Positions 13,631-58,919 of a stretch of DNA of 64,000 bases are shown here, piece by piece. Location of the stretch: positions 30,632-94,631 of IMG/VR virus record IMGVR_UViG_3300009093_000034; one strand, given 5' to 3'. The translations under genes were made by a program, and so were the position numbers. Each line of letters starts with the position of its first letter. Within the stretch, counting starts at the first letter, position 1. Origin of the DNA: a virus. The notes beneath the pieces were generated by a model, which saw only the letters and a program-made list of their open reading frames with translations, was not told the origin of the DNA and did not search any database.

Positions 13631-14122
13631 ATGAAAAAATTTATCTTCCTCGATATTGACGGAGTTCTCGCAACCACTTGGCACAAACGCCTTGAGGATG
13701 GAGAGCTCTGTTTCAATGAGGCACCAGTCAGAAACTTTAACGATCTTTGTACGGCGGTACCTGATGCAAAGATCATCATCACCTCAACATGGCGTCTTGG
13801 TAGAACTGTTGATGAGTTGAGAGCTATCTTCAAGTTTAGAGGTTTTCTTTATCCTGAGAGGATCATCGATAAAACTCTCAGATTCTTCTACAACTACGAC
13901 CTCAGCGATGGAACCTCTGCATCTAAAGGAGTTCCTAGAGGTGTTGAGATCGCTCATTGGATGGATCATCATCTCATTGATGAGGATGAGATCTCCTACT
14001 TGATTCTTGATGACGACTCAGACATGATGCTCCGTCAAGGCAACCATTTCCTTCGAACCAATAGTTCTAGAGGTTTGACTTCGACAAACGTCAAAAGAGC
14101 GATTAAGATCCTAAATGGCTAG
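13631..14122 (+). CDS. HAD-like hydrolase (phosphatase/nucleotidase family)
   Basis: The N-terminal FIFLDIDGVLAT matches HAD motif I DxDG(T/V). Confidence 0.5.
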   Translation: MKKFIFLDIDGVLATTWHKRLEDGELCFNEAPVRNFNDLCTAVPDAKIIITSTWRLGRTVDELRAIFKFRGFLYPERIIDKTLRFFYNYDLSDGTSASKGVPRGVEIAHWMDHHLIDEDEISYLILDDDSDMMLRQGNHFLRTNSSRGLTSTNVKRAIKILNG

Positions 14123-14954: not shown

Positions 14955-15331
14955 TGGCTCCTGTGTTTCCTTTTTTTATGTTCGCTGGACTCTTTTCTAA
15001 AAAGAAAGAAGAGACTAAGGTACCAGAGGTTCAAACTTATCCTGATCGATTCTTCGCTTTAGATCAATCAGAGACTGAAAGACTCATGAAGGATCATGAA
15101 AATGGAGATCCTCATATCTCTTTCCGGGTCTACAAGAATCTTCAATACTACCGAAAGTTGGTAGCTAATTACAACGAAAAGTACCAGATGTCAGTAGTCA
15201 TTTCTCCTAACGAGATGAAGTTATTCAAGAAAGAAAGAGACGATGATCTAGAAGTACTCAGGGAGTACTCTCGTCAGATCATTGCTCATTTACGGGAAGA
15301 AGCTTTTACAGGATTTTATTGGAAAAAATGA
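14951..15331 (+). CDS. hypothetical protein
   Basis: 126 aa with an ATGA overlap to the upstream gene. Confidence 0.45.
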   Translation: MMAPVFPFFMFAGLFSKKKEETKVPEVQTYPDRFFALDQSETERLMKDHENGDPHISFRVYKNLQYYRKLVANYNEKYQMSVVISPNEMKLFKKERDDDLEVLREYSRQIIAHLREEAFTGFYWKK

Positions 15332-15472
15332 TGTCTAAAATTAAAACGTGTGATGAAAAAATTGTCTTTTGAACGATTTTTGCTCTTGTAGCAAGATCCA
15401 AATCTCTCCTCTTTATCTAGTTGTCATAGCAATCGGATTAGCTATAGGAATTGCTTTGATCAAGGTTTTTAT

Positions 15473-15901
15473 ATGAGATTCACTCAAGAATGGTTTAGAA
15501 ACTCACCACAAGAAGAAGTCAAGCTATTGAATGGTGAGGAAGTTTGGGTCTGCGATTACAGATTCACCTCATTAGGCAACAAGCCTATTCGAGTCATTGT
15601 TCCGACTCTTTGTATCATCCACGTCAGTTTTTACGTGGACAAGTACTATCCTAGAGGAAACCCGATTCCTGTTGTAGAACTCAAGATCAAGAAGAACGGA
15701 AAAGATCTTAAGGTAGAAGACAACACAACGGCCTACAACAACTGGCTGAAGATCTTTAACGATGAACAAGAGTGCAGAGCTTTCTTCAGAGAACAAATGA
15801 CCGAAAACCTTGATGACCTAGACGAGTGGGAAAAAGGTCAGATAGAAAGAGCTGCAGAACTCAGAGCTACAATGCACAAGCTCCTAAAGGAACACGGATG
15901 A
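15473..15901 (+). CDS. hypothetical protein
   Basis: 142 aa. A 140-nt noncoding region containing inverted repeats lies upstream. Confidence 0.45.
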   Translation: MRFTQEWFRNSPQEEVKLLNGEEVWVCDYRFTSLGNKPIRVIVPTLCIIHVSFYVDKYYPRGNPIPVVELKIKKNGKDLKVEDNTTAYNNWLKIFNDEQECRAFFREQMTENLDDLDEWEKGQIERAAELRATMHKLLKEHG

Positions 15902-16698
15902 GCAACAAATTTAAGAACGATTCACTTGGAACAAGGATGAAGGAGAACTATGAGAACAGATCAAAGATCTTTCTCCCTCGTAGAACCTACATCATCCTTC
16001 GTGTGGATGGCAAAGCTTTTCACACATACACGCGTGGTCTATTAAGGCCTTTCGACCAGGGTTTGGTCGAAGACATGGACGCTACGGCAATCTACCTTTG
16101 CAAGAACATCATGGGTGCTCAGTTCGCCTATGTACAGTCTGACGAGATCTCTATTCTTCTCACAGACTTTGACACCAACGAGACCCAATCTTGGTTTGAC
16201 AACAATGTCCAGAAGCTTGCCTCAGTCTCTGCTTCTATGGCAACCTCAGCTTTCAACAAGGCCAGGATTTCAAGGTTCATGGCTACTACGACAGCAGTTC
16301 CTCTCGAGGATGCTGTGGACAAATTGACTTGGGCAGAGTTTGACTCTCGTGCCTTCCAGATCCCTCAGAAAGTTGAAGTAGAGAACTACTTCATCTGGCG
16401 TCAGCAGGATGCTACAAGAAACGCCATCTCCAGTGCTGCTCAATCTGTCTACTCCCACAAAGAACTTGAGGGAAAGTCTGGAGATGAGAAGCAAGAGATG
16501 ATGTTTCAGAGAGGCATCAACTTCAACGACTATGATCCTAAGTACAAAAGAGGTCGTTTGATCGTTACAGAAACTTTTCCAAGTATCTCAGTTACATCAG
16601 GTGACATGGCAATTAGAACAAAATGGGTCTCCACGGCCGCTCCTATCTTCACTCAAGATAGAGATGATCTCTCTGATAGAATTCCAGAAAGTAGGTAA
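15898..16698 (+). CDS. Thg1-like protein (tRNA-His guanylyltransferase family, 3'-5' nucleotidyltransferase)
   Basis: YIILRVDGKAFHTYT and YVQSDEISILL match the Thg1 hallmark blocks RIDGRxFHRF and QSDEYSF. The ATG at 15898 overlaps the upstream stop. Confidence 0.7.
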   Translation: MSNKFKNDSLGTRMKENYENRSKIFLPRRTYIILRVDGKAFHTYTRGLLRPFDQGLVEDMDATAIYLCKNIMGAQFAYVQSDEISILLTDFDTNETQSWFDNNVQKLASVSASMATSAFNKARISRFMATTTAVPLEDAVDKLTWAEFDSRAFQIPQKVEVENYFIWRQQDATRNAISSAAQSVYSHKELEGKSGDEKQEMMFQRGINFNDYDPKYKRGRLIVTETFPSISVTSGDMAIRTKWVSTAAPIFTQDRDDLSDRIPESR

Positions 16699-16701
16699 GA
16701 C

Positions 16702-17031
16702 ATGGAACGAGACACAGGTCCATTTAGGATCGAAGACGAAGAAGAACCAGACCTCGGACCAACCTCTGAGATTGAAGTAGTTGAAGGAGCTAGTTCTTCT
16801 GCTGAAGATAGCGAAGATTACTCCCCAAATGTCAAGATCTTCATTGACAAGGACTACTCTGGAGCCCTTTGGGTTCCTGAGAGAGATCTTCTTGAGAACA
16901 TGAGTGTGGACCAGTTGGTTCTTTATTGGAGTGATCCTTATGCTCCTATCGAAGTTCCTGCTCATGTGGTAGCTCAGCTTAAAGCCAAGGCTCACAGCCA
17001 GCTAGGATACTTGAACAAGAAACGAAGGTAA
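16702..17031 (+). CDS. hypothetical acidic protein
   Basis: 109 aa. Confidence 0.4.
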   Translation: MERDTGPFRIEDEEEPDLGPTSEIEVVEGASSSAEDSEDYSPNVKIFIDKDYSGALWVPERDLLENMSVDQLVLYWSDPYAPIEVPAHVVAQLKAKAHSQLGYLNKKRR

Positions 17032-17035
17032 GAAC

Positions 17036-17269
17036 ATGAGCTGTTTAGTTTGTGGCCAAAATGCGTTTGATAGGATTGACATCACTATCCCTGGAGTTCC
17101 CAGAGTATATTTGAAATCCTCTAGAGGAGAAGTTGATCTTTCATTTTGCACGATCTGCGGAACTGTCAAAGCTGACGTGCCCTTCCCATCTACAACTAGA
17201 GCTGCTTTGTTAGAAGATAGATATAAAAAGATCTTAGAAAGAAACAGTGGTTTGTCCACAGATCCTTGA
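17036..17269 (+). CDS. zinc-ribbon protein
   Basis: CLVCGQ...CTICG Cys pairs. Confidence 0.4.
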   Translation: MSCLVCGQNAFDRIDITIPGVPRVYLKSSRGEVDLSFCTICGTVKADVPFPSTTRAALLEDRYKKILERNSGLSTDP

Positions 17270-17281
17270 GATATTGTAGTC
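17267..17281 (+). promoter_or_regulatory. conserved promoter-like motif TGAGATATTGTAGTC (copy 3)
   Basis: It lies 20 nt upstream of the ATG at 17301, with an AGGAGG RBS between. Confidence 0.55.
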
Positions 17282-17300
17282 AACTCAAGGAGGTTTCATC

Positions 17301-17531
17301 ATGCCCGCTATTTCGGATATGGTCGAGAAGTACAAGGAACGAGTGATCGTTCTGGAACGGAAGATCTCGAACGCTGGTTACGGTGGATCCTCTGACTACA
17401 CGTCGGAGACTGAACGTGAGACCTTGATTGAGGTCATCAATGATCTCGAGGCCATGTCTGGTCTCGAAAGAACCATCTTCCCTGAACCCTTCAAGGAAGG
17501 TTGGCACGGAATGATTGGAGGTCCGAACTAA
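17301..17531 (+). CDS. hypothetical protein (GC-rich cassette)
   Basis: 76 aa with a strong RBS. Confidence 0.45.
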   Translation: MPAISDMVEKYKERVIVLERKISNAGYGGSSDYTSETERETLIEVINDLEAMSGLERTIFPEPFKEGWHGMIGGPN

Positions 17532-17915
17532 ATGGACGACACTGCTAAGGCATTTTCAGGACTTGCGATTCTTCTTCTGCTCATCTTGTGGTGTTGTGGA
17601 AGTTGCATCGGGACGGTCAGCAATCAGGCTGACATGACCGCTACTGTTATCAAAGCAGAACGGATTAACAATAGGTCCAACAACGGATCTCGTTACTTGG
17701 TCTTTACCAAGGACGTGAAGAGTCTGAGCGGAGACAGCTCTGCAACTGAAGAGGTCTTCGAAGACACCGATGAGTGGGTCTTCGGAAAGTTCAACTCTTC
17801 GGATCTGTACGGAAGCCTGACTCCCGGTACTCGTTATCAGTTCCACGTGTCTGGTGTTCGTAACCAGATGTTCTCGTGGTATCGCAACATCATCAAAGCT
17901 GAAGAGGTGAAGTAA
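17532..17915 (+). CDS. secreted/lipoprotein-like protein
   Basis: N-terminal signal-like LAILLLLILWCCGSC. Confidence 0.45.
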   Translation: MDDTAKAFSGLAILLLLILWCCGSCIGTVSNQADMTATVIKAERINNRSNNGSRYLVFTKDVKSLSGDSSATEEVFEDTDEWVFGKFNSSDLYGSLTPGTRYQFHVSGVRNQMFSWYRNIIKAEEVK

Positions 17916-17916
17916 C

Positions 17917-18375
17917 ATGTCCAAGACTCCTGCTGAACAACTTTCCATTGCGATCTCGATCGCTTCGAAGGGCCATGAAGGGGTCTTGGATAAGGGCGGC
18001 TCGCCCTACATCCTTCATCCTCTTCACGTGATGAACGCTGTTGCCCATCTTGGCTATCTGTGCATGGCTGCTGGTGTTCTTCATGACACTATTGAAGACA
18101 CTGACACCACTGCTCAGAATCTGCGTGACGCTGGTCTCGAAGAGAACGTGGTCATGACTGTCTTGGCCGTCTCTCGCCCTAATGGAGTTCTCTATGATGA
18201 CTTCATCAAGGCGATTGGAGCTACCCCCGGTATCGTAGGAACTTGGGCTCGGGCCATCAAGTTGGCTGACATCGAACACAACTCTACCGTCACTCGCCTC
18301 AAGGGTGTGGCTAAGAAGGACTTCGATCGTCTTCAGAAGTATGTCTATGCATACCAGTATCTGAAGGAAGTGTAA
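17917..18375 (+). CDS. small alarmone hydrolase (RelA/SpoT-type HD domain, (p)ppGpp hydrolase-like)
   Basis: KGHEGVLDKGGSPYILHPLHV...AAGVLHDTIEDT matches the SpoT HD-domain signature H..R.SGEPYI.HP...LLHDV.EDT. Confidence 0.65.
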   Translation: MSKTPAEQLSIAISIASKGHEGVLDKGGSPYILHPLHVMNAVAHLGYLCMAAGVLHDTIEDTDTTAQNLRDAGLEENVVMTVLAVSRPNGVLYDDFIKAIGATPGIVGTWARAIKLADIEHNSTVTRLKGVAKKDFDRLQKYVYAYQYLKEV

Positions 18376-18376
18376 G

Positions 18377-18559
18377 ATGAGTTTCAACTCTGTGGTTACT
18401 GCTGTTACTCCTACCTCTCCTCTCAACAAGAAGAACAAGACCAACTTTGGTTTGGAATTCTGGAAGAAGCTAGCTTCCAAACAGAAGGAAGCAGATCCTG
18501 AACGTCACGAATCCAAAGAATACCTTCAGCAACACACCGAAGGATGGGAGGATCTCTAA
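18377..18559 (+). CDS. hypothetical protein
   Basis: 60 aa. Confidence 0.35.
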   Translation: MSFNSVVTAVTPTSPLNKKNKTNFGLEFWKKLASKQKEADPERHESKEYLQQHTEGWEDL

Positions 18560-18801
18560 TGAGTAAAGGTACTCTTTTCATCCAAGGTAGTGTTGGCCAG
18601 GTCTCTGATGCTGATAAGGCTTGGGACCTCGTGGTCAAGGCTGGCGAAGAGAAGATGGATTTAGCTGATCGTCTTATTGGCTACAAAGAAAAGTCCATCA
18701 TGTATGGCTTTGCTTTGAAAGAGATCCGTAAGCTCATCGCTGGTAAGAAAGATACTACCTCGATGGCCATCCGAAAGATCATCCTAGAAATTCAATCATG
18801 A
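18544..18801 (+). CDS. hypothetical protein
   Basis: 85 aa. Confidence 0.4.
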   Translation: MGGSLMSKGTLFIQGSVGQVSDADKAWDLVVKAGEEKMDLADRLIGYKEKSIMYGFALKEIRKLIAGKKDTTSMAIRKIILEIQS

Positions 18802-19109
18802 GTTCTGCTACTATTGACGTAGATCCTAAAGATTTGAAAGTCATGAACTCTCATGGCTATGACAACGTTTTCTTCTGGGATGAAATTCCTTGTACGTGCG
18901 ACGCCTGTCGACATGTGGTCTCACGTAAGACTCTTGTGAGATCCCAAGAACAAGGGGTCTTTCTTTTGATCCACCCTACGAAGTACAGTGAGTACAGCAC
19001 CATTGTGAACTCCATCTTTCTCAACAGAGTTTTCACTGGAAATGAGATCTGGTTAAGATCTGAGTGCAAACGATATGGGATCAAGATCCTCAAAGAGATT
19101 CGACTATGA
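18798..19109 (+). CDS. hypothetical Cys-rich protein
   Basis: 103 aa with a CTCDAC motif. Confidence 0.4.
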   Translation: MSSATIDVDPKDLKVMNSHGYDNVFFWDEIPCTCDACRHVVSRKTLVRSQEQGVFLLIHPTKYSEYSTIVNSIFLNRVFTGNEIWLRSECKRYGIKILKEIRL

Positions 19110-24491: not shown

Positions 24492-24959
24492 TTGTACATG
24501 AGAAGAACCTATAGAATAGAAAAGTCTTTAGATATTGAGGAGTTCATTAGAATAACTAATGAATCGTTAACCATGAAACAAGCTGCTGTGAAACTTGGTC
24601 TTCATTTTAATAGTTTCAGAAGAATAGCAGTAAAGTATGGAGTTTATCGACCTAATCGTGGAGGCAAAGGAACCCATAAGCATAAAGAAAATGGGACTAC
24701 ACCTCTTACTGAAATTTTGGAAGGAAACCATCCATCATATCAAACGTTTAGATTAAAACTTAGATTAATTTCAGAAGGAATTTTTATTCCAGAATGTTCT
24801 GAATGCAAAAATACTCAATGGAATAAAAAAGAAATTCCTTTAGAGTTAGATCACATAGATGGAAATTCTTCTAACCATCTTTTAGACAACTTACGATTGT
24901 TATGTCCAAATTGTCATGCACAAACTGAGACGTATAGAGGAAAAAACAAAAAGTTTTGA
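24492..24959 (+). CDS. HNH homing endonuclease with N-terminal HTH
   Basis: CSECKN...LDHIDGNSSNHLLDNLRLLCPNCH is an HNH motif. Its AT-rich codon usage is distinct from the flanks. Confidence 0.7.
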   Translation: MYMRRTYRIEKSLDIEEFIRITNESLTMKQAAVKLGLHFNSFRRIAVKYGVYRPNRGGKGTHKHKENGTTPLTEILEGNHPSYQTFRLKLRLISEGIFIPECSECKNTQWNKKEIPLELDHIDGNSSNHLLDNLRLLCPNCHAQTETYRGKNKKF

Positions 24960-25849: not shown

Positions 25850-27061
25850 ATGGCCCGTATTGAAAAGCTGATCATGGTGACCGGTGAAGAGAATCACAAC
25901 AAGGTCTATGAGCTGATCGACAACGAGAACGGTACTTGTACCGCCAAGTGGGGTCGGGTTGGCGCTGCTCTTCAGGAGTGCAACTACCCCATCAGCGAGT
26001 TTGAAAAGAAGCTCAAGGAAAAGGTCAAGAAGGGCTATCGCGTGATCACCGATCTTCTGTCTGTCGAGAAAAGTGATGGTAAGACCACCACTACGGACGA
26101 CGAAGAGGTAAAGATCCAGAACATGTCCCGTGAGGCCATGGAGTTGATCAACTTCCTCCAGAGTTGTGCTAAGGGCATCGTCAAGCAGAACTACACCGTC
26201 AAAGTTGCCGACGTTACTCAGAAGCAGATCGACGCTGCTCAGGCCATCCTGGACGGACTGGTTGCTCTGTCCAACCAGAACTGGTCTCGTGAAGAGGCCA
26301 ACAAGATCCTTTTGGATCTTTACAACACCATCCCCCGGAAGATGAGCAACACCAAGAACTTCCTCATCCAGATCGACAACATCACGAAGAAGCGCCTTCA
26401 GGAGTTGATCTCCAGTGAAGCCGATCTTCTTGACGTTATGCGCGGTCAGGTTCAGACCACGAACGTTGCTCCCAAGTCTTCCACTGGCGAAGTCAAGTTG
26501 GATATTGAGATTCGTCTCGCTACTCCCGATGAGATCGATGAGATCTCCAAGAAGACTGACTTTGATGTTCGTAGTGCTGCAAGGATCTATCGGGTGGAGA
26601 ACACCAAGACCAAGAATCGCTACGAAAGTATCAACAAGCAGAATGAACAGCTTCTCTACCACGGTTCTCGCAGCCAGAACTGGTGGTCGATCATCAACGG
26701 CGGTTTGAAGATTCGTCCGACCAACGCCGTTCACACTGGCTCGATGTTCTCCGATGGTATCTACGCTGCTGACAAAGCTCAGAAGTCTCTCGGTTACACC
26801 GACGGTGGTTATTGGACTGGTAGCAGTGGTTCCTCGAAGAGGTTCCTCGGCATCTACAGTTTCAACCTCGGTCGTCAGTGGGATCTGTTCGCTGGTGGTC
26901 AGCGTCATGCCAGCTGGATGATGCAGCTCAACCTGAAGAAGATCAACGACAAGGGTTTTGACTCTCTGTTCGCTAAGGGTGGAGCAGATCTTCGCAACAA
27001 TGAGATGATCGTGTTCGAAGAGGCTCGCTGCACCATCAAGTATCTGATCGAGATGCGTTAA
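25850..27061 (+). CDS. PARP-like ADP-ribosyltransferase (WGR domain + helical domain + ART catalytic domain)
   Basis: The N-terminal WGRVG is a WGR motif. The C-terminal LYHGSRSQNWWSIINGG, GIYAADKAQKS and NEMIVFEEARCTIKYLIE blocks supply the H-Y-E triad of PARP catalytic domains. Confidence 0.75.
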   Translation: MARIEKLIMVTGEENHNKVYELIDNENGTCTAKWGRVGAALQECNYPISEFEKKLKEKVKKGYRVITDLLSVEKSDGKTTTTDDEEVKIQNMSREAMELINFLQSCAKGIVKQNYTVKVADVTQKQIDAAQAILDGLVALSNQNWSREEANKILLDLYNTIPRKMSNTKNFLIQIDNITKKRLQELISSEADLLDVMRGQVQTTNVAPKSSTGEVKLDIEIRLATPDEIDEISKKTDFDVRSAARIYRVENTKTKNRYESINKQNEQLLYHGSRSQNWWSIINGGLKIRPTNAVHTGSMFSDGIYAADKAQKSLGYTDGGYWTGSSGSSKRFLGIYSFNLGRQWDLFAGGQRHASWMMQLNLKKINDKGFDSLFAKGGADLRNNEMIVFEEARCTIKYLIEMR

Positions 27062-29995: not shown

Positions 29996-30925
29996 ATGAG
30001 TGACGCAGTAGAAAAGAAAGAACCCACGTATGATGAGATCGTCAAAAGCGCTAAAGAGTACTTTGAAGAACTCAAAGCCAAGATCAAGGTCTCTAACGAT
30101 GAGCTTCTTGACCAGATCTCCACAAACTCAGCTCAGCTCTTTGCTCAGCTAGAGAGAACTGGACAGATTCAGGCCATGAAGAAACTTGTGGCTCACATTG
30201 CCTTGATTGAAAAGGAACACGAGATCATCAAGTCTGGGATCAACACCTTTGTGACCACAGATGAGATCAAAGAGTTCATTGACAAGGTTGATGGACGTGT
30301 GGTGAATCTCATTGAGCTGCATAAGTATGAGCGTGAGGTTCCTGAGAACGTGATCCAGAAGTACGAGAAGGTCAAACATCTTTTCACCACCTTCTTCGTT
30401 CTTTTCACTGACTACACAAAAGAACACGCCAAAAAGATCGCCAAGGAAAGAGATCCTATTCTCTTTGGTATGCTTCAAGACGCTGGAACCAAGGCCACGA
30501 CTCAGCGTATGTATGTGATCGGTGACTGGGAAGATGAGTATTGTGATCTTACTTTGGACCGACTTGTGTCCGAAGCCGCTGGTCTCTTTGACAGACCGAT
30601 CGCTATTCAGTTCAGAGATCCTTTGTCCCTTGACGAGATGAGAGCTAAGCTCAAGATGTTGGATGGAGAGTCCAAATCTGATAACTCTAGATGGGCAATG
30701 AACAATGTCGTGGTTACCGGAACCACTGCTTCCATGCAAAACATCTACGTTCCTGTAGTTCCATCAGAACAGGATTTTAAAGATAAGAGCATTCCTGATG
30801 AAGTTCAAGAAGTCGCAAAAGACGTTGTTGAAGAGGAAGAAACTCGAAGTCTTCTCACTAAAGATTCTGAGATTGACACCATGATTCTCCAAGAGACCAA
30901 GAAGCCTTGGTGGAAGTTCTGGTAA
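29996..30925 (+). CDS. hypothetical protein
   Basis: 309 aa. Confidence 0.5.
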   Translation: MSDAVEKKEPTYDEIVKSAKEYFEELKAKIKVSNDELLDQISTNSAQLFAQLERTGQIQAMKKLVAHIALIEKEHEIIKSGINTFVTTDEIKEFIDKVDGRVVNLIELHKYEREVPENVIQKYEKVKHLFTTFFVLFTDYTKEHAKKIAKERDPILFGMLQDAGTKATTQRMYVIGDWEDEYCDLTLDRLVSEAAGLFDRPIAIQFRDPLSLDEMRAKLKMLDGESKSDNSRWAMNNVVVTGTTASMQNIYVPVVPSEQDFKDKSIPDEVQEVAKDVVEEEETRSLLTKDSEIDTMILQETKKPWWKFW

Positions 30926-46142: not shown

Positions 46143-46574
46143 ATGGTTACAAGAAAAATTTGGCGTTTTGAAAACGAAAAAGGTGAAGGTCCTTATAACG
46201 GACACCCTAGTCCAAAATTTCTCTTTAAGTCTACTCATGACGGAGAGTCTAAGAAACATCCTCATCCCAAGTATGACTTTAAGAACTCTAAGATCATTAG
46301 ATTCTTAAACAACATGAACACTAAAGATCACTTTAGATGTGGATTTTCTACAAAGAAACAGGCATTTGAGTGGTTTACTGAACGAGAAAGAAAGATCTTG
46401 AAAAATAATGGCTACAATTTAGTCCGTAAAAATGCAGATAGAATCTTTAAAGGAAACAAACAAGTTATCTATATTCGTGAAGGTCATTTAGAAGAACTTG
46501 TTAAAGTTTTTCGTTTTGATCATTCTGTTCCAAAAACATTAACATCAATATATTCAATCAGGAGCTCAACATGA
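46143..46574 (+). CDS. hypothetical basic protein
   Basis: ATG at 46143 just after the upstream stop, in frame with the longer tracked ORF. Confidence 0.4.
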   Translation: MVTRKIWRFENEKGEGPYNGHPSPKFLFKSTHDGESKKHPHPKYDFKNSKIIRFLNNMNTKDHFRCGFSTKKQAFEWFTERERKILKNNGYNLVRKNADRIFKGNKQVIYIREGHLEELVKVFRFDHSVPKTLTSIYSIRSST

Positions 46575-47122
46575 TGCTACAGACCATTGAAGGAAACCTA
46601 ATCACTCTCGCCCTTGAAGGCAAGTTCGACATGATCGCTCATGGTTGTAACTGCTTCCATACCATGGGAGGAGGGATCGCCAAGTCTATTTCTGAGACTT
46701 TTCCTGAAGCTCTTCAAGCCGACAGGGTCTTTGGAGAAAGAGGAAACGTTTGGAAGCTTGGTCAGGCTTCCAAGGCTACGATCTTTCGTGGAGACACTCA
46801 GTTTGTTGTGGTGAACCTCTATACTCAGTTTGAGCCTGGAGCCAACTTTGAATACTTGGCCTTGATCAACTCTTTAGAGCATCTCAAGAAATACTTGGAT
46901 ATTCATCTCTACGATCGAGTGTCCGATAAACCTTACCGTCTTGGTTTTCCCAAGATCGGAGCTGGTATTGGTGGTGGAGATTGGGACCAGATCTACCAGA
47001 TCATTGACCAGTCTCTTGACGAGAAGTATCGTGAGGAACAGGGAGTCGAAATCACGGTTGTCGAGTTCATTCCTCCTAATCCTCTTCAGGAGATCGTTGT
47101 TCGTTCTCTTCAGAAGAAGTAA
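46571..47122 (+). CDS. macrodomain protein (Poa1-like ADP-ribose processing)
   Basis: MIAHGCNCFHTMGGGIAKSI matches the Poa1/macro signature iaHqcNc.g.MGaGIA. Confidence 0.6.
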   Translation: MMLQTIEGNLITLALEGKFDMIAHGCNCFHTMGGGIAKSISETFPEALQADRVFGERGNVWKLGQASKATIFRGDTQFVVVNLYTQFEPGANFEYLALINSLEHLKKYLDIHLYDRVSDKPYRLGFPKIGAGIGGGDWDQIYQIIDQSLDEKYREEQGVEITVVEFIPPNPLQEIVVRSLQKK

Positions 47123-49542: not shown

Positions 49543-50130
49543 ATGGGAAAGACTGCAGTTTTTACATTTGCAAGAATGAATCCTCCAACTTTAGGTCATG
49601 AACTATTGCTCTCAGAACTTGTCATTCAAGCCTTAGAAAAGAAAGCTGATCCATTTCTTTTCCTTTCCCACACAGAAGACTCTAAGAAAAACCCTATTCC
49701 TTACGGGAACAAAGTTAAATTTGTCAAAGAACTTTTCAAAGATAAGTTCCCTGAACTCCATATCTACTCAGGAGAGAGCTGCAAGAACCCTAGAGAAGCT
49801 CTCTCTTTCCTTTACAATCTTGACGATTACTCTGAGGTGATTGGAGTCTTTGGTAGTGATCGAGTGGATGACATGTACGATCTTATGACCAGAGGAAACG
49901 GAAAAGAAGGTCTTTCATCTGGTTTCTATCTCTTCAACAAACTCTCTGTCACATCAGCCGGAGAACGAGACCCAGAACAAGATGGAGTTGAAGGTGTTTC
50001 TGCCACTAAACTCCGTGAGTACGCTCTAGAAAATGACTTTGAGTCCTTCAAAAAAGGTCTTCCAGAGGCTGACGAAACACTAATTAATAACATCTTTCTA
50101 ACGACCCAACGAGGACTTGAACGTGCCTGA
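49543..50130 (+). CDS. nicotinamide/nicotinate mononucleotide adenylyltransferase-like (HxGH nucleotidyltransferase)
   Basis: FARMNPPTLGHELL is the (T/H)xGH motif. VSATKLRE is the ISSTxIR motif of the NadD/NadM family. Confidence 0.6.
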   Translation: MGKTAVFTFARMNPPTLGHELLLSELVIQALEKKADPFLFLSHTEDSKKNPIPYGNKVKFVKELFKDKFPELHIYSGESCKNPREALSFLYNLDDYSEVIGVFGSDRVDDMYDLMTRGNGKEGLSSGFYLFNKLSVTSAGERDPEQDGVEGVSATKLREYALENDFESFKKGLPEADETLINNIFLTTQRGLERA

Positions 50131-52261
50131 AAAAACTATCCCTAACTCTGGAGCGGTCTCTTCTGATCGAATCCTTCAAAAGAACGTTTTTCCAACCATT
50201 GAGGTCTTTGTTGATAAGATCTTGAACTTGGTTCCTCACCAGAAGTATGGCGTGATCGGATCTACTGGAAAGAAACAAGACAACGGAGATATCGACCTAG
50301 GCCTTGAAACCTCTTTGACCTTAGATCAAGTGAGTGCTGTCCTAAACGACCTTGACGTTGATCATGTGGTTCAAAAAGGACTTAATGAGATCAATTGTCG
50401 ATTTCCTCAGTATGAGAACGGAGCTCACAAGTTAGATCTTTGGGTTCAGGTTGACTTGATGTTAGGAAATTTGGATTGGTTGGAGTTCGTGTTCTACGTG
50501 GACAAGGACACCAAGTACAAGCCGATGGCTAGAACTGGTCTTCTCTTCGGTCTACTCAAAGTAGCTGCTATGCCTATCGCTGGCCAAAACACACCTCAAG
50601 GTCCATCTAATGAAGTTTGGTCTTTTGCTCCTACTCGTGGTATGTTCACCAAGGTTGGAACCAAAAGAACTAACAGAAAAGGTGAAGAAGTCATCGATTG
50701 GACCAACTCGTCTTCTTATACCCCTGACCCAAACAAGTTTTGTGAGATCGCCTTTGAACAAGCTAGGCGCGCTGTAAAACCCTCTGAACTAGAAACTTCC
50801 TTTGAAGGTTGTTGGAAGGTTATGACAGACGTTTTCTCTAACAACCCTACTCTCTTAGGTCAACTCGCAGAGTATGTCATGAACTTCTGTAAGGACAAGG
50901 GAGTCTCACCGGTTCCTGAGCTTGAACAATGGACCAAAGCCTTGAAGGTTCAAGAGTCTATTGAACAACTTCTTGAATACGTTGAGTACATCAAGGGTCA
51001 CAAAAACTCCTCTGGAGAATCTGCTCCTTGGGTCATCAAACAACATAACACTGGAAAGATCCTCTCAAGCCACTCCTCTGAGGCCAAGGCTAAGGCTCAC
51101 CTCGGTCAGATGGAGATGCACAAACATCTGGAAGAAAAGTATGACACTAGGGATGACGGAAGTGAGCTCGCTAGTTTCCTTCTTGATCCTCGTGTCATCC
51201 AAGAACTTCGTAGATCATCAGAGCCTTTGAGAACTTTGGTGGTCGACGGACTCAGACAATTTGGTATCTCTGTCAAAGACTCTACTAAGAGTGAAGACTC
51301 CGACTTTATCTACCCAGACGTAGGTATTGAAGGCGGAGTGATGTATCCTAATGGAAAACTTCAGATCATCATTGACGTTGATCAAGTTGAGGAAATTCTT
51401 GCTGGTCTTAGGTTTGATGGTCTAGATCAATACAAGAAGTTCATTAGGTATCTAGCAGCTGTCTACGCTCATGAAAAGATTCATGATGCCCAGTACAAAG
51501 CATCAGGTGAAGAATATACTTTGAGAAAAAAAGATCTCTTATCTCTCACAGGAGACGACAGAGATTATCTCTCGAACGAAAGAGAGATTCATGCTCAGGC
51601 TTCCAGTGCAGTAGATGAATGGATAGCCGAAGGTTATGCTCCAGAACAAATTAGAAAATGGTTAACTAACACAGTTGAGTTGATCCGTCATGCTAAAGAT
51701 GCTCCTGCTATTATGGACTATTGGAAAGGTTTTGGCATCTACAAGAGTGAAGAAAGTCAAAAGGTCTGGCGACAGTTCTTGAAGCAGGTTTATGACTTTA
51801 CTCAACAAAAGATGATCAAAGAATCCACAGATAGTGACAAGATCGCAATGTTCATCAACAGGCCTTCTGAAGCCATCAAAGAAGGAAAGTTCTATTGGCA
51901 AGATCCTACCAACGATGAGATCCACGGTGGAAAGATCATTAGTGTTGATGCTCCTGACTTCATCGTTGAGGTCGAGTGTGAACTCTGTGGAAAGACTTGT
52001 TACACAGACAACTTCAGAGACTCACAAGATAAAGAATGGTGGATCAAAGCTCAAAAGCTCTTAGAAGGTGTTTCTCAAAGTGCTATTCAAGCTTATCAAC
52101 AGCAAAAGAACTCCCCTGAGAAACATAAGGTAGATATTGTCTCAACTGAGATGGCAGCTCCAGAGAACGGGGTGAACTTCTTGGCTGGAGGTGGAAGACC
52201 TCAAGATCTTCAACCTGCCACGGTTAGGTATGACTCAAATGGAAAACTCAGAAACGAATGA
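50117..52261 (+). CDS. Pol-beta-superfamily nucleotidyltransferase domain protein with C-terminal HExxH region (714 aa)
   Basis: YGVIGSTGKKQDNGDIDLGLE is the hG[GS]...D.D NTase signature. YAHEKIHDAQ is an HExxH motif. The start is non-ATG (TTG at 50117 or GTG at 50123). Confidence 0.5.
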   Translation: MNVPEKTIPNSGAVSSDRILQKNVFPTIEVFVDKILNLVPHQKYGVIGSTGKKQDNGDIDLGLETSLTLDQVSAVLNDLDVDHVVQKGLNEINCRFPQYENGAHKLDLWVQVDLMLGNLDWLEFVFYVDKDTKYKPMARTGLLFGLLKVAAMPIAGQNTPQGPSNEVWSFAPTRGMFTKVGTKRTNRKGEEVIDWTNSSSYTPDPNKFCEIAFEQARRAVKPSELETSFEGCWKVMTDVFSNNPTLLGQLAEYVMNFCKDKGVSPVPELEQWTKALKVQESIEQLLEYVEYIKGHKNSSGESAPWVIKQHNTGKILSSHSSEAKAKAHLGQMEMHKHLEEKYDTRDDGSELASFLLDPRVIQELRRSSEPLRTLVVDGLRQFGISVKDSTKSEDSDFIYPDVGIEGGVMYPNGKLQIIIDVDQVEEILAGLRFDGLDQYKKFIRYLAAVYAHEKIHDAQYKASGEEYTLRKKDLLSLTGDDRDYLSNEREIHAQASSAVDEWIAEGYAPEQIRKWLTNTVELIRHAKDAPAIMDYWKGFGIYKSEESQKVWRQFLKQVYDFTQQKMIKESTDSDKIAMFINRPSEAIKEGKFYWQDPTNDEIHGGKIISVDAPDFIVEVECELCGKTCYTDNFRDSQDKEWWIKAQKLLEGVSQSAIQAYQQQKNSPEKHKVDIVSTEMAAPENGVNFLAGGGRPQDLQPATVRYDSNGKLRNE

Positions 52262-52800
52262 GCATGTCCAACTGGTTAAGAGGAAATGCTTTTCAAGAGA
52301 AAGACGAATACTATACGCCTAAAATTTTAGTAGATATAATTGTTCCTTATGTGCCTGCTGGATCAACAGTATGGCTCCCATTTGATACTGAAGACTCCGA
52401 GTTTGTTCATGCGTTTAAGCACACACATGAGGTAGTCTTCTCTCACATCTGGGAAGGAAAAGACTTCTTTGATTTCATTCCAGACAAAGTTGACTACGTC
52501 ATCAGTAATCCTCCCTATTCTAGAAAGATGGATGTTTTGAAGAGACTCTATGACTTAGATTTTCCTTTCGCTATGGTTCTCCCTCTTCCTTGTTTAAACT
52601 ATCAAGAGGTTGGAAAGTTCTTTTTAGATCGAGAACTTCAGCTCTTGATCCCAGACAAGAAAGTCTCTTTTAATGGAAACACAGCGTCTTTCAACAGTAC
52701 CTTCTTTTGTCACAAACTTCTACCTTCCAACTTGATGTTTGCTCACTTAGAACACAACAATACTGGGAAGAACTTTGTTGGAAGTAGAATGATCTCTTAA
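52258..52800 (+). CDS. putative DNA N6-adenine methyltransferase (small phage Dam-like)
   Basis: YYTP and VISNPPYS are (D/N)PPY catalytic motifs. Confidence 0.5.
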   Translation: MSMSNWLRGNAFQEKDEYYTPKILVDIIVPYVPAGSTVWLPFDTEDSEFVHAFKHTHEVVFSHIWEGKDFFDFIPDKVDYVISNPPYSRKMDVLKRLYDLDFPFAMVLPLPCLNYQEVGKFFLDRELQLLIPDKKVSFNGNTASFNSTFFCHKLLPSNLMFAHLEHNNTGKNFVGSRMIS

Positions 52801-52831: not shown

Positions 52832-54043
52832 ATGCCAAACACAGACAAAAATCACTCCACTCACATTGAAGACTCTGTCCTACAAGGTCCGAAGAAGATC
52901 CAAATGGCGATCCTCTTCTTTGAAGGTCTTCTCAACAACTCGTCTAGTCTAACCAAGAGTCTCAAGATCGACGGAGCTCCCGTTGTCTTGGCAGGTTCCA
53001 ACGCTGTTGGGATCACCAGGCCTTTTGTTGCAGCCAAGTCCTTCTTGAACAACGGTAAGGTCGCGACCAACGAGGATGAGATCCAAGAGCTCTTTGGAGA
53101 TCGTCCTGGTCTTGCTTCCAAGATGAAGAAGCTTCTTGAGCTCCTTCCAGAACTTCAGATCCCTGAAGGAGAGATTTGGAGAGGAGACTTGCTCTTCTCT
53201 AAAGACACTCTTCAAAACGAAGGTGGAAACAACTACTTCCACCCTAACACTCTTGTTTATGCTCCAAACTCCCAATCTGAGATTGATGCTGTCAATCAAG
53301 CAGACATCGGAATCATCTGGCACACCTACTACACAGGGGAGACACTTACGTCTCTCACAGCTCATGCCGATCTCGATGTCTACCGATTGAAACCTTCTAC
53401 ATCTGTTTTTACTCTGAGTCCTCTCTTCAAACAAGAAGAGCTCTCCATTGAGGAAACCTTCTTGATCAAGAGTACATTGGCAACAGTCAAGGAAAGATTC
53501 AGAGGTCTGATGGCTGGTTCTGTTGGAGCTACGTACGCCGAAGTTCTTAAGAACAAGGTGTTTCTTGAACACCTCACAACCTACCTCAATCACTTGATCA
53601 GACAAGGAAAAGGAATCTACCAGTTCTCTCCTACGGATCTTGCTTACAGCTGGATCCCTCAACGATATGAGCAAAAGATCGAAGGTCTTAAGACTGAGAA
53701 GTTCAAGACCAAGTGGAAGAACGAACGAGACTCCTACATCGATGCTGCTAGGTTCATTGAACCTGTCCTTGGTCAGATGATCTCCTTGATGAAAGCCCTT
53801 GTTCACGTCAAGGCTTTGTTCATCCAAAACTTCAACTCTTTGAAAGATCTTCCTTTCATGACCTTCTACAAAAAGAAGATCGATGATCGGGCTGTGTTGG
53901 TCAAGACTGCTCATGAAGGCTTTGTCATCACGGACAAGAAAGGAAACTCTTTTAAGCTTGTTGACCGAGAAGAGTTCACGAAGATCAACTTTGGAGTTGA
54001 TACTGTTCGCGGATGGAAGGAAGAGTCGAAACAAGTCCAATGA
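52832..54043 (+). CDS. putative nucleotidyltransferase/ligase-like protein
   Basis: LKIDGAPV is a KxDG motif-I-like block. The C-terminal HEGFVITDKKGNSFKLVD resembles ligase motifs IV/V. The assignment is tentative because the motif spacing is unusually long. Confidence 0.4.
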   Translation: MPNTDKNHSTHIEDSVLQGPKKIQMAILFFEGLLNNSSSLTKSLKIDGAPVVLAGSNAVGITRPFVAAKSFLNNGKVATNEDEIQELFGDRPGLASKMKKLLELLPELQIPEGEIWRGDLLFSKDTLQNEGGNNYFHPNTLVYAPNSQSEIDAVNQADIGIIWHTYYTGETLTSLTAHADLDVYRLKPSTSVFTLSPLFKQEELSIEETFLIKSTLATVKERFRGLMAGSVGATYAEVLKNKVFLEHLTTYLNHLIRQGKGIYQFSPTDLAYSWIPQRYEQKIEGLKTEKFKTKWKNERDSYIDAARFIEPVLGQMISLMKALVHVKALFIQNFNSLKDLPFMTFYKKKIDDRAVLVKTAHEGFVITDKKGNSFKLVDREEFTKINFGVDTVRGWKEESKQVQ

Positions 54044-56489: not shown

Positions 56490-57587
56490 ATGCAGAACCT
56501 TCTCGTCCTCAAGTTCATTCAGGAACATCCCAACGATTGGGAGCAGATCCTCTCTGCTGAGCCTTACCACATGTCAGTCAAGCACTACGATGGTAAGGAA
56601 CTCATCAACCAGAACTTGGTGATGCTCTCCTACAACCAGATCTTCTCCGACTTCCACAACCCGATCGTTCGTGAGTGCCGAGGTATCATCATCGACAAGG
56701 TCACCATGAAGGCTGTCTGTGTTCCGTTCTTCAAGTTCGGAAACCAGGGAGAGAGCTATGCTGACAAGATCGATTGGTCCACAGCTCATGTTCTCCAGAA
56801 GATCGATGGTTCTCTGATCAAGCTCTATTTCTACAATGGAACCTGGCGAATCGCCACCAATGGAACCATCAACGCTCTCGAGTGTGATCTTCCTTCGGAC
56901 CTTGGTCCTTCGAAGACCTTCGGTGAGTTGTTCTTGAACAACATCCCTGTGGACAGCTTCCTCGACATCGCCGACAAAGACTACACTTACATGTTTGAGA
57001 TCTGCTCTCCTTGGAACCGGGTGGTAACTCCCTGGCAGACCACCGAGATCTTCTTCTTGGGCATGCGTCACAACGAGACCCTTCAGGAAACTCTTCCTGA
57101 TGACCGGTTCATGCCGATCCTTCCTCCGAAGATGTATCCTCTGACCTCTTTGGCTGAGGTCGAAGCTGCTTCCAAAGAGCTTCCCTTCCAGGATGAAGGT
57201 TATGTCGTCGTTGACGCTGACTTCAAGCGTGTCAAGATCAAGGGTCCGGCTTACGTCAAGATCCACCATCTCCGTTCTGAAGGGCCCTTCACCATGAAGC
57301 GTGCCTTCGAGTTGGTTCAGGCCAATGAAGTTGGTGAGTTTCTTTCGTACTATCCCGAGTATACTAACGTTGTAGAAGGTGTTCGTTCCAAATTGGACGT
57401 CATCAAGGAAGCTCTGAAGGAACAGGAAACTCTTGTTTTCTCCCAGAACTTCCTTAGCCGAAAGGACTACGCTCTCTTTGTCAAGGACTTCCAGTACAAG
57501 TCTTACTTCTTCTCGAAGTTGGATGGCAAGGTGTCTGGCATCGACGAGTACGTTTCTAAACTCAAGTTCGATCAGGTTCAACTGTGA
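56490..57587 (+). CDS. RNA ligase 1 (T4 RnlA-like)
   Basis: VLQKIDGSLIKLYF is nucleotidyltransferase motif I KxDG(S/T). Its 365-aa length is comparable to T4 Rnl1. Confidence 0.7.
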   Translation: MQNLLVLKFIQEHPNDWEQILSAEPYHMSVKHYDGKELINQNLVMLSYNQIFSDFHNPIVRECRGIIIDKVTMKAVCVPFFKFGNQGESYADKIDWSTAHVLQKIDGSLIKLYFYNGTWRIATNGTINALECDLPSDLGPSKTFGELFLNNIPVDSFLDIADKDYTYMFEICSPWNRVVTPWQTTEIFFLGMRHNETLQETLPDDRFMPILPPKMYPLTSLAEVEAASKELPFQDEGYVVVDADFKRVKIKGPAYVKIHHLRSEGPFTMKRAFELVQANEVGEFLSYYPEYTNVVEGVRSKLDVIKEALKEQETLVFSQNFLSRKDYALFVKDFQYKSYFFSKLDGKVSGIDEYVSKLKFDQVQL

Positions 57588-58553: not shown

Positions 58554-58919
58554 ATAAAGGGAACTCTGTTTCAGCGTAACAACCGAAGTTAGCGCCGACA
58601 AAATGAGATGATGCGAAAGGCCTTGGGGAGCACAAGGTACCAACGAGTAGCTACCATCTCACGTACTGTCTCTCATGCCCCTGAGAGAACTTCCGTTTTA
58701 AGAAGCGACCACGAATTGCTTCCCAGGTTGCGGAAGAACAAATAGTTCCCGAGCAAAGTAGTGTAACGGTTTCGCACGACCAGTGTCTACTGGTTAGTTC
58801 TAGGATCATCCCCTAGACTTTGCTATTGCTCTTGAATTCCACGTAAAGGAGGTTAACCATTCACATGAATTCCAAGGACAACTTTCACACTTCACACATC
58901 ATAAGGTCTTCTCACGAAA

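Follow-up and report, generated by a model that had tools for sequence, protein, structure and literature searches.

The classic case of tRNA repair as a counter-defence is that of phage T4 Pnkp and RNA ligase 1 (Rnl1) against the anticodon nuclease PrrC, and many other host modes of tRNA attack are now known. The RNA-repair sets described from jumbo phages comprise Thg1, Rnl1/Rnl2/RtcB ligases, HAD phosphatases of the Swiss Army Knife (SAK) type, RlaP and CCA-adding nucleotidyltransferases (NTases) (Iyer, Anantharaman, Krishnan, Burroughs & Aravind 2021, PMC7824862), and Thg1 has been linked by gene context to polynucleotide kinase, Macro and RNA ligase genes (Anantharaman et al. 2010, PMC2904730). 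Thg1-like proteins (TLPs) of the class represented by that of Bacillus thuringiensis (BtTLP) repair, in a template-dependent manner, the truncated 5' ends of tRNAs of various identities, and prefer this 5- to 160-fold over −1 addition (Rao et al., PMC3061083). A phage with a 5'-end rebuilding polymerase, a ligase and a phosphatase would be a reasonable test case for a possible physiological repair role of bacterial TLPs. Genes of these three kinds are present in the 64,000-nt stretch of viral DNA analyzed here (IMG/VR record IMGVR_UViG_3300009093_000034, positions 30,632 to 94,631; hereafter the window), where the TLP is encoded at 15898-16698.

The window corresponds to positions 49387-113386, reversed, of the 305,853-bp metagenomic contig ena:ERZ27252312 k141_4393686. 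It has a G+C content of 43.6% and encodes major-head-like, tape-measure-like and 1472-aa fiber-like proteins, a family-A DNA polymerase and GroEL; the ~306-kb contig is that of a jumbo phage. The explanation favored here, with slightly better than even confidence, is that the TLP would repair tRNA 5' ends, that separately encoded enzymes would act on other RNA ends, and that a Pol-beta-fold NTase and a ligase-like protein would form an extend-and-seal module of their own. A repair capacity beyond the T4 pair had been proposed in the first-pass annotation of this DNA; as an RNA-end repair complement it is plausible and has precedent, but it is not a new idea, since the toolkit concept and the list of components are already published and this phage is another instance (PMC7824862). 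The window shares with the published sets an Rnl1, a SAK-type HAD that stands alone, a Pol-beta NTase adjoining a ligase, a Thg1, which is sporadic in them, and a Macro domain. It differs from them in that its NTase matches no RlaP or other Pfam model, is partnered by DUF6267 rather than by Rnl1, Rnl2 or RtcB, and has a HIGH-signature NTase as a fixed third member. The features assigned to RNA-end metabolism, with one possible further member, are as follows.

13631-14122, + strand: standalone HAD phosphatase of the SAK RNA-repair family, 163 aa (Pfam HAD_SAK_2, phrog_1818)
15898-16698, + strand: TLP of the template-dependent 3'-5' nucleotidyltransferase family, 266 aa (Pfam, PHROG and PDB matches)
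17917-18375, + strand: RelA/SpoT-type HD hydrolase, small alarmone hydrolase-like (HD_4, phrog_990, spoT_relA)
56490-57587, + strand: Rnl1-type ATP-dependent RNA ligase (Pfam, PHROG, alignment with T4 Rnl1)

The Thg1-like protein and its phage relatives

The domains of the Thg1/TLP family are PF04446 and PF14413, and both lie above their gathering scores in the TLP open reading frame (ORF): Pfam Thg1 at 1.8e-27 (96.3 bits against a cut-off of 29.2) and, marginally, Thg1C at 1.8e-6 (28.6 bits against 26.3). Together with matches to phrog_4717 (2.8e-80) and to the nearest solved structure, BtTLP 4kgk (5e-60, aligned end to end), they bear out the earlier assignment of this ORF as Thg1-like. Eukaryotic and archaeal Thg1 structures match at 6.7e-14 to 1e-7 at best. 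The palm carboxylates, which in human THG1 are the metal-binding residues D29, D76 and E77, are kept as D37 (RVDG, 16006-16008) and D82/E83 (SDE, 16141-16146), and these motifs align with those of both BtTLP and C. albicans Thg1. In the HINNLYN region, which reads DCHINNLYNT in C. albicans Thg1, the phage TLP has QQDATRNAISSAAQ, which resembles the QQDASKNSISMVAQ of BtTLP. Because BtTLP is far closer than the Thg1 structures and the HINNLYN region also follows BtTLP, the ORF is, judged by sequence, a bacterial-type TLP and not a eukaryotic-type Thg1. The two proteins share ~45% identity over their whole length, the two-domain Thg1/Thg1C layout and the RVDG and SDE motifs (PDB 4kgk/4kgm), whereas the present TLP is phage-encoded, is known here from its sequence and carries a short insertion (residues ~128-150). 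Its ATG at 15898 overlaps the stop codon of the upstream 142-aa ORF (15473-15901; ATGA), and this start agrees with the N-termini of homologs.

What might such an enzyme do in an infected cell? A TLP would use ATP or GTP to activate an RNA end that bears a 5'-monophosphate and would then extend it in the 3'-5' direction, templated by the 3' strand of the acceptor stem of the tRNA, and its most likely task here would be to rebuild 5'-truncated tRNAs, of phage or host, during infection. An unlikely alternative is that it is a tRNA maturation enzyme which completes tRNA-His, or other tRNAs encoded elsewhere in the phage genome, with G-1 or a different missing nucleotide at the 5' end, as a supplement to translation and not as a counter-defence. 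TLP is present in 164 of 50,697 INPHARED records (tblastn), and the name given to nearly all of these homologs, tRNA-His guanylyltransferase, speaks for maturation, as do the large, tRNA-rich genomes of many TLP phages, the proximity of TLP to a CCA-adding enzyme in CcrColossus and, by its note, in 4L372D, and the statement that nucleotides are restored “especially in the histidinyl tRNA” (PMC7824862). However, the present TLP is of the bacterial type, whose representative BtTLP favors truncated tRNAs (PMC3061083), and it resembles BtTLP in the very region where the eukaryotic sequence is missing. In addition, no tRNA-His or any canonical tRNA was found in the 64-kb window or in the 14 kb of flanking sequence reached beyond it (8.8 kb upstream and 5.6 kb downstream; L008 and L009). 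Repair of 5'-truncated tRNAs remains the preferred task.

The TLP-encoding phages include Bacillus Herelleviridae, phages of Caulobacter, Xanthomonas/Stenotrophomonas and Erwinia/Pectobacterium, jumbo phages of the phiKZ type, the Lak megaphages and mycobacteriophages of cluster J. The neighborhood of TLP was compared, by annotation, in ten phage genomes of about nine lineages (RAS14 and Xoo-sp13 being of one type). A tRNA-end enzyme or an unspecified nucleotidyltransferase is annotated within 8 kb of TLP in 6 of the 10, with the following neighbors.

Phage Goe8: RtcB
Phage RAS14: RnlA
Mycobacteriophage Klein: polynucleotide kinase, 0.6 kb off
CcrColossus: CCA-type tRNA nucleotidyltransferase
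CBB: unspecified nucleotidyltransferase
4L372D: tRNA-NTase-like gene

The Xoo-sp13 ORF at the position of RnlA is unannotated, gave no tblastn match to the window Rnl1 and was left out of the count. Based as it is on annotation, the proximity of TLP to repair genes across phages is suggestive.

Rnl1, a candidate phosphatase and an HD hydrolase

The T4-type RNA ligase 1 proposed earlier at 56490-57587 is well founded. Pfam RNA_lig_T4_1 matches at 5.7e-11 (43.1 bits against a cut-off of 28.3), phrog_562 at 1.1e-50 and the T4 Rnl1 structure 2c5u at 3.5e-14, and the PHROG and NCBIfam alignments reach into the C-terminal region. The adenylylation lysine is K104 (KIDG, 56799-56810), equivalent to T4 K99, and equivalents of the residues essential in T4 (R54, K75, F77, E159, E227, G228, K240 and K242) are all kept, as R64 (ECRG), K82/F83 (FKFGN), E170 (FEIC), E236/G237 (DEGY) and K249/K251 (KIKG). 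The protein thus has the adenylyltransferase domain of a phage Rnl1 such as T4 gp63. NCBIfam TIGR02308 scores 60.8 bits (1.2e-16), below the equivalog cut-off of 242.25, and the sequence accordingly reads as a divergent member of the family, not an equivalog-level ortholog. Rnl1 would seal 3'-OH/5'-P breaks in tRNA anticodon loops; the host anticodon nucleases proposed as the target in the first-pass annotation, and a counter-defence purpose, are inferred. The arrangement differs from the T4 Pnkp-Rnl1 pathway in that the Rnl1 is very divergent and has no Pnkp partner in the window or flanks, and in that no kinase is seen, while the phosphatase step may fall to the SAK-type HAD encoded on its own. 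The position of Rnl1 after DUF6267 and a 730-aa ORF is shared with a distant relative of the phage, an 11-kb contig (L007, GCA_037025285.1) with protein identities of 48-90% over the shared genes.

The 730-aa protein that lies between DUF6267 and Rnl1 here and in L007 (54048-56240, + strand) is rich in Thr, Ser, Gly and Val, has no family match and may be fiber-like. T4 Rnl1 (gp63) also promotes the attachment of tail fibers.

TLP is preceded, at a distance of 1.8 kb, by the HAD gene, which is the phosphatase candidate. It matches Pfam's HAD_SAK_2 (“HAD domain in Swiss Army Knife RNA repair proteins”) at 1.4e-25 (90.7 bits against 27.5) and phrog_1818 at 6.8e-27, and the HAD motifs are recognizable as DIDGV (motif I, residues 8-12) and an acidic LDDDSD; longer antisense ORFs overlap the gene. 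Jumbo phages tend to carry the SAK-HAD as a domain on its own, and the family removes linear 3'-phosphates by hydrolysis ahead of ligation (PMC7824862); the window protein is, on its sequence, a candidate for 3'-phosphate removal. Homologs occur in 320 phage records, in all of which they are called hypothetical or carry an unrelated name. The earlier statement that no polynucleotide kinase or phosphatase was visible therefore holds for the kinase, no Walker-A motif being present in window ORFs of at least 60 aa other than one tape-measure-like protein, but not for the phosphatase.

The HD hydrolase ORF 1.2 kb downstream of TLP matches phrog_990 (2.4e-38) and NCBIfam spoT_relA (6.1e-13), while Pfam HD_4 (8.7e-6, 26.0 bits) falls just below its cut-off of 27.2. 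Small alarmone hydrolases can strip from tRNA CCA ends the pyrophosphate added by antiphage toxSAS enzymes (bioRxiv 10.1101/2021.04.30.441581; for CapRel, PMC9712102). The HD protein could by analogy be another healer of tRNA ends and a possible further, putative member of the RNA-repair set; plain hydrolysis of (p)ppGpp or (p)ppApp is equally possible.

The HIGH/Pol-beta/DUF6267 module

A second group of genes lies at 49.5-54 kb.

49543-50130, + strand: HIGH-signature (“cytidyltransferase-like”) NTase, first gene of the module (phrog_3041, 5.7e-44; phrog_395, 6e-26)
50117-52261, + strand: 714-aa protein with a Pol-beta-fold NTase domain predicted at residues 1-280 (50117-50956) and a C-terminal region at residues 281-714
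52832-54043, + strand: DUF6267, predicted covalent nucleotidyltransferase, ligase-like (fold model and candidate motifs)

The HIGH NTase, with the motifs TLGH (residues 16-19) and SATKLR (153-158), was overlooked in the first reading and belongs with the NTase and ligase-like ORFs. The three are repeatedly fused. Among 32 homologs of the NTase domain, fusion to DUF6267 is seen in 15 and fusion to CTP_transf_like in 9; the NTase domain is joined to DUF6267 in P0003 to P0005, the HIGH NTase to a 714-aa-type protein in P0002, and HIGH, Pol-beta and DUF6267 domains follow one another, in that order, in the single chains P0049, P0054, P0063 and P0078. Phrog_455 is itself a DUF6267 and HIGH fusion. 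The order in L007 (HIGH+NTase fusion, DUF6267, 730-aa ORF, Rnl1) is that of the window. On the evidence of these fusions, the triple ones included, and of the synteny in L007, the NTase, DUF6267 and the HIGH NTase form a conserved module of their own and are not accessories of TLP or Rnl1.

The HIGH-NTase and 714-aa ORFs overlap by 14 nt in different frames (50117-50130) where P0002 and L007 have one 881-aa protein, and either gene fission/fusion or a frameshift would account for this. Inside the module the window carries an NPPY methyltransferase-like 180-aa ORF (52258-52800, + strand; phrog_799), which is regarded as an insertion because it is missing from the otherwise same-order L007. This ORF is 35% identical to the “tRNA (adenine-N6)-methyltransferase” of Fusobacterium phage FNU2, encoded 3 kb from the FNU2 TLP.

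The 714-aa ORF has no Pfam (E<=0.01), PHROG, NCBIfam or PDB sequence match. Sequence-only PDB searches with this protein, DUF6267, the HIGH NTase and the HAD returned noise, and fold searches were therefore needed. An exhaustive HMMER search with residues 1-280 gave 177 cluster representatives, and in the alignment of the family G48-S49, D58xD60 and Q111xD113 are invariant, which is the Pol-beta signature. An AlphaFold2 model of the domain (pLDDT 92) gave these fold-match scores.

TdT/Pol mu chimera: 9.3
Pol beta: 9.0
Pol lambda: 8.8
African swine fever virus (ASFV) Pol X: 8.8
GLD-2, CutA, Cid1 and TUT enzymes: 7.6-8.4
CD-NTases: 6.6-7.1
LnuA: 6.4
CCA-adding enzymes: 5.5-5.8

All the marks of the Pol-beta superfamily (G[SG], [DE]x[DE], a third carboxylate and the palm fold) are found in the domain, which is predicted to be a Pol-beta-fold NTase resembling a family-X palm and thumb and closest to family-X polymerases and TUTases. 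The fold proposed in the first-pass annotation is thus retained, and the domain does not group with antibiotic NTases or CD-NTases, LnuA and the CD-NTases lying below family X and the TUTases. Its suggested identity as a CCA-type adder is not supported: no tRNA nucleotidyltransferase or PolyA_pol profile matches, and the CCA enzymes are among the lowest fold matches, below the 8.8-9.3 of family X. By sequence the domain is not RlaP (PF10127) either, as neither this nor any other Pfam family matches.

The HExxH noted earlier in this ORF is indeed present, at residues 452-456 (51470-51484) within YAHEKIHDAQ (450-459). The C-terminal ~430 residues that contain it have no family match, and their only homologs are P0001, which is this phage's own, and P0002. 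Residues 353-714 (51173-52261) may form a zincin-like domain as in phage polyvalent proteins. A homolog of the N-terminal NTase domain in PA5oct is annotated as a virion structural protein.

DUF6267 is predicted from its model to fold as a ligase adenylyltransferase domain with the KxDG and its invariant lysine inside, in agreement with the earlier description of 52832-54043 as a KxDG ligase-like ORF. The candidate motifs are K45xDG (I), G118-D119 (III), E362-G363 (IV) and K375 with R379 (V), and G118-D119, E362-G363, K375 and R379 are invariant in the family. The model has a helical insertion (residues 206-335) before the last strands (342-377) and no OB-like or beta-barrel domain separate from the NTase domain, and RNA ligases are the closest to it in fold.

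In an extend-and-seal module, a 3' end would be lengthened by the family-X-like NTase, and the break would be closed by DUF6267 by way of a lysyl-NMP intermediate. The pairs of RlaP and RNA ligase are a close parallel, in that a Pol-beta NTase and a KxDG enzyme of ligase fold are genetically linked, as neighbors or as one fused protein, and by analogy this coupling suggests nucleotide restoration before sealing. The window NTase differs from these pairs in having no RlaP sequence match and a family-X-like fold, and in being partnered by another ligase family and an additional HIGH NTase. Giant homologs (~2,200 aa) combine the NTase domain and a HIGH NTase with ABC1/APH kinase-like and weak Rnl1-like domains, which take the place of DUF6267, and one NTase homolog has a 2H/LigT domain. 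A layout of kinase, NTase and ligase, in which one ligase family is displaced by another, resembles nucleic-acid end-repair systems.

DUF6267 is encoded by 89 INPHARED phages, always as “hypothetical” and adjoining a “cytidyltransferase.” Most are T4-like cyanophages, but pelagiphage HTVC008M, Methylophilales phage Melnitz and Stenotrophomonas phage DLP6 are also represented. No mention of DUF6267 was found in the literature, and the module looks new, lying outside the published descriptions of jumbo-phage repair as far as these were checked. A more novel but less probable reading is that DUF6267, a core-like protein mostly of marine T4-like cyanophages and pelagiphages, is an unrecognized family of polynucleotide ligases, in an obligate module with the HIGH NTase (and here the family-X-like NTase), which would make up a new three-nucleotidyltransferase end-repair or joining system in at least 89 phages. 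The HIGH NTase might supply or recycle the nucleotide cofactor of the ligase. If this is true, the module could even replace the missing DNA ligase in cyanophages without gp30. DUF6267 is abundant in marine T4-like phages, and the prediction of its ligase fold bears on nucleic-acid replication and repair in ocean phages.

The DLP6 gene upstream of DUF6267, and perhaps that of Syn1 (L011 3478-4977 and L012 3896-4813), shares, by eye, a short PD-(D/E)xK-like motif with the C-terminal extension of P0003, which hints at a nuclease as a fourth component.

Several results weigh against the favored explanation. The genes are dispersed over ~14-18 kb, 49.5-54 kb and 56.5 kb. PMBT8, 201phi2-1 and FNU2 have no repair gene within 6 kb of TLP, and an all-against-all blastp comparison of ~5 kb around TLP found no ORF but TLP common to the ten phage loci and the window. 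As there are three separate loci and no conserved neighbor of TLP, concerted action is only inferred. TLP behaves as a free-standing gene, and the one coordinated toolkit of the first-pass annotation is not supported. No Pnk-type kinase is encoded in the window, nor did the search for Pnk find one in the flanks reached, so that a heal-and-seal pathway is incomplete there. The SAK-HAD homologs of RB43 and nt-1 do not adjoin RNA-repair genes, which makes the family name a lead to RNA repair and not a proof of it. A literature search found no biochemistry of any phage TLP. As for the module, an hhalign comparison of the DUF6267 profile with the window Rnl1 was not significant, the only segment pairing HEGFV with DEGYV (motif IV), and the Rnl1-like matches in the giant homologs score 19.5-22.5 bits, under the Pfam cut-off of 28.3. 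DNA is also as plausible a substrate of the module as RNA: its best NTase fold matches are DNA polymerases X, and the genes for DUF6267 and the HIGH NTase in cyanophage Syn1 belong to the replication cluster, with gp43/uvsX/gp41/MazG on one side of them and gp61 on the other. Because of this Syn1 arrangement, an RNA substrate is not established, and the earlier placement of the NTase and ligase-like ORFs in an RNA toolkit is replaced by that in a module of their own.

Could the module then act on DNA? The family-X-like polymerase would fill gaps and a non-canonical ligase would seal nicks, in replication or in the repair of host-inflicted damage, much as ASFV Pol X and its ligase or LigD do, and the RNA set would be reduced to TLP, Rnl1 and HAD. 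This is a serious, if less probable, rival. It gains from the Syn1 and Pol X evidence, from the listing of gp30 DNA ligase among the quasi-core genes, a class of which many are lacking in at least one marine T4-like cyanophage (PMC2993671), and from DLP6, where a subunit of exonuclease VII is encoded among the neighbors and a ParB-like DGHHR motif closes the HIGH-NTase protein. However, DLP6 has gp30 DNA ligase alongside DUF6267 (PMC5349666). The ligases of ASFV and of bacterial LigD systems, which act on DNA, have OB domains, as do DNA ligases and capping enzymes in the form of a separate OB-like beta-barrel, whereas the DUF6267 model has the helical insertion in place of any such domain and is slightly closer to RNA ligases. 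Some homologs of the same architecture carry a weak Rnl1-like, 2H/LigT phosphoesterase or kinase-like domain, and the module is syntenic with Rnl1 in this phage and in L007. The resemblance to RNA ligases, the lack of an OB-like domain, the displacement by Rnl1-like domains and the Rnl1 synteny lean toward RNA.

A further reading, judged improbable, is that these genes are unrelated accessories of one large genome and that the module serves to make or use up a small molecule derived from a nucleotide, or to modify proteins, as in NAD+-related chemistry with the PARP-like and Macro proteins that the window also encodes. Phage HIGH NTases are typically NMN adenylyltransferases or NDP-sugar synthases (PMC7824862), one homolog has NUDIX beside the HIGH domain as in NadM-Nudix, and CD-NTases and alarmone synthetases are among the lower-scoring fold matches of the NTase.

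The tRNA-like element and neighboring genes

The “phage tRNA” of the first-pass annotation is not a canonical one.

58752-58825, + strand: aberrant tRNA-like cloverleaf (ARAGORN “tRNA-?(Asp|Arg)(tc)”) in a ~370-nt non-coding gap (58554-58919)

A canonical tRNA has an Rfam match, a 7-nt anticodon loop and a 7-bp acceptor stem. Here Rfam tRNA does not match at the gathering score or at E<=10, the anticodon loop (UGUCUA) has 6 nt and the acceptor stem 8 bp; the D stem has 3 bp, and the T-loop is AUCAUCC with A54/U58 (numbering used here). The fold is stable (minimum free energy −24.9 kcal/mol, z −3.4) and the gap is unusually long for a non-coding stretch. No relatives were recovered for covariation. 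A metagenome search with the D-loop/T-loop DNA pattern was discarded, its 30 matches being about the number estimated to arise by chance for 20 specified bases and none coinciding with an ARAGORN tRNA call. The element may be a degenerate tRNA, a tRNA-like RNA of another role or a chance cloverleaf.

Blastn of 15000-19000 against INPHARED found no nucleotide-level relatives, queries with a 224-aa ORF and the NTase domain found no close relatives in IMG/VR, and a metagenome scan with a 170-aa ORF found none. Over 13,153 bases the sequence agrees at every position with that of a second assembly (SRR6056503).

The region of the PARP-like, Macro and HD hydrolase genes is rich in conflict genes. 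The ORF at 25850-27061 (+ strand), overlapped by a slightly longer antisense ORF, encodes a protein of 403 aa in which Pfam recognizes a PARP catalytic domain (4.5e-22) and, weakly, WGR at the N-terminus; its sequence suggests a phage-encoded WGR-PARP ADP-ribosyltransferase of eukaryotic style. An identity as a Tpt1/KptA RNA 2'-phosphotransferase was rejected, the matches being weak (1.9e-3 and 3.4e-4) against that to PARP. A Macro domain is encoded at 46571-47122 (+ strand; Pfam 6.3e-6; NCBIfam DarG antitoxin 8.3e-6; phrog_335 “phosphatase”) and is kept in L007. It could, by its family matches, be an eraser of ADP-ribose or have an anti-DarT function, paired with the PARP-like gene.

Genes in the flanks include ribonucleotide reductase, NUDIX and FliM/N-like genes. 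The FliM/FliN-like ORFs (PF02154, PF01052) lie 5 kb past the 3' end of the window (L009 16410-17548), beside NUDIX and DUF4326 genes. The accessory region also holds genes of mobile elements, namely a transposase-like ORF at 29996-30925 (+ strand; phrog_10081, 3.3e-61) and an HNH endonuclease ORF at 24492-24959 (+ strand).

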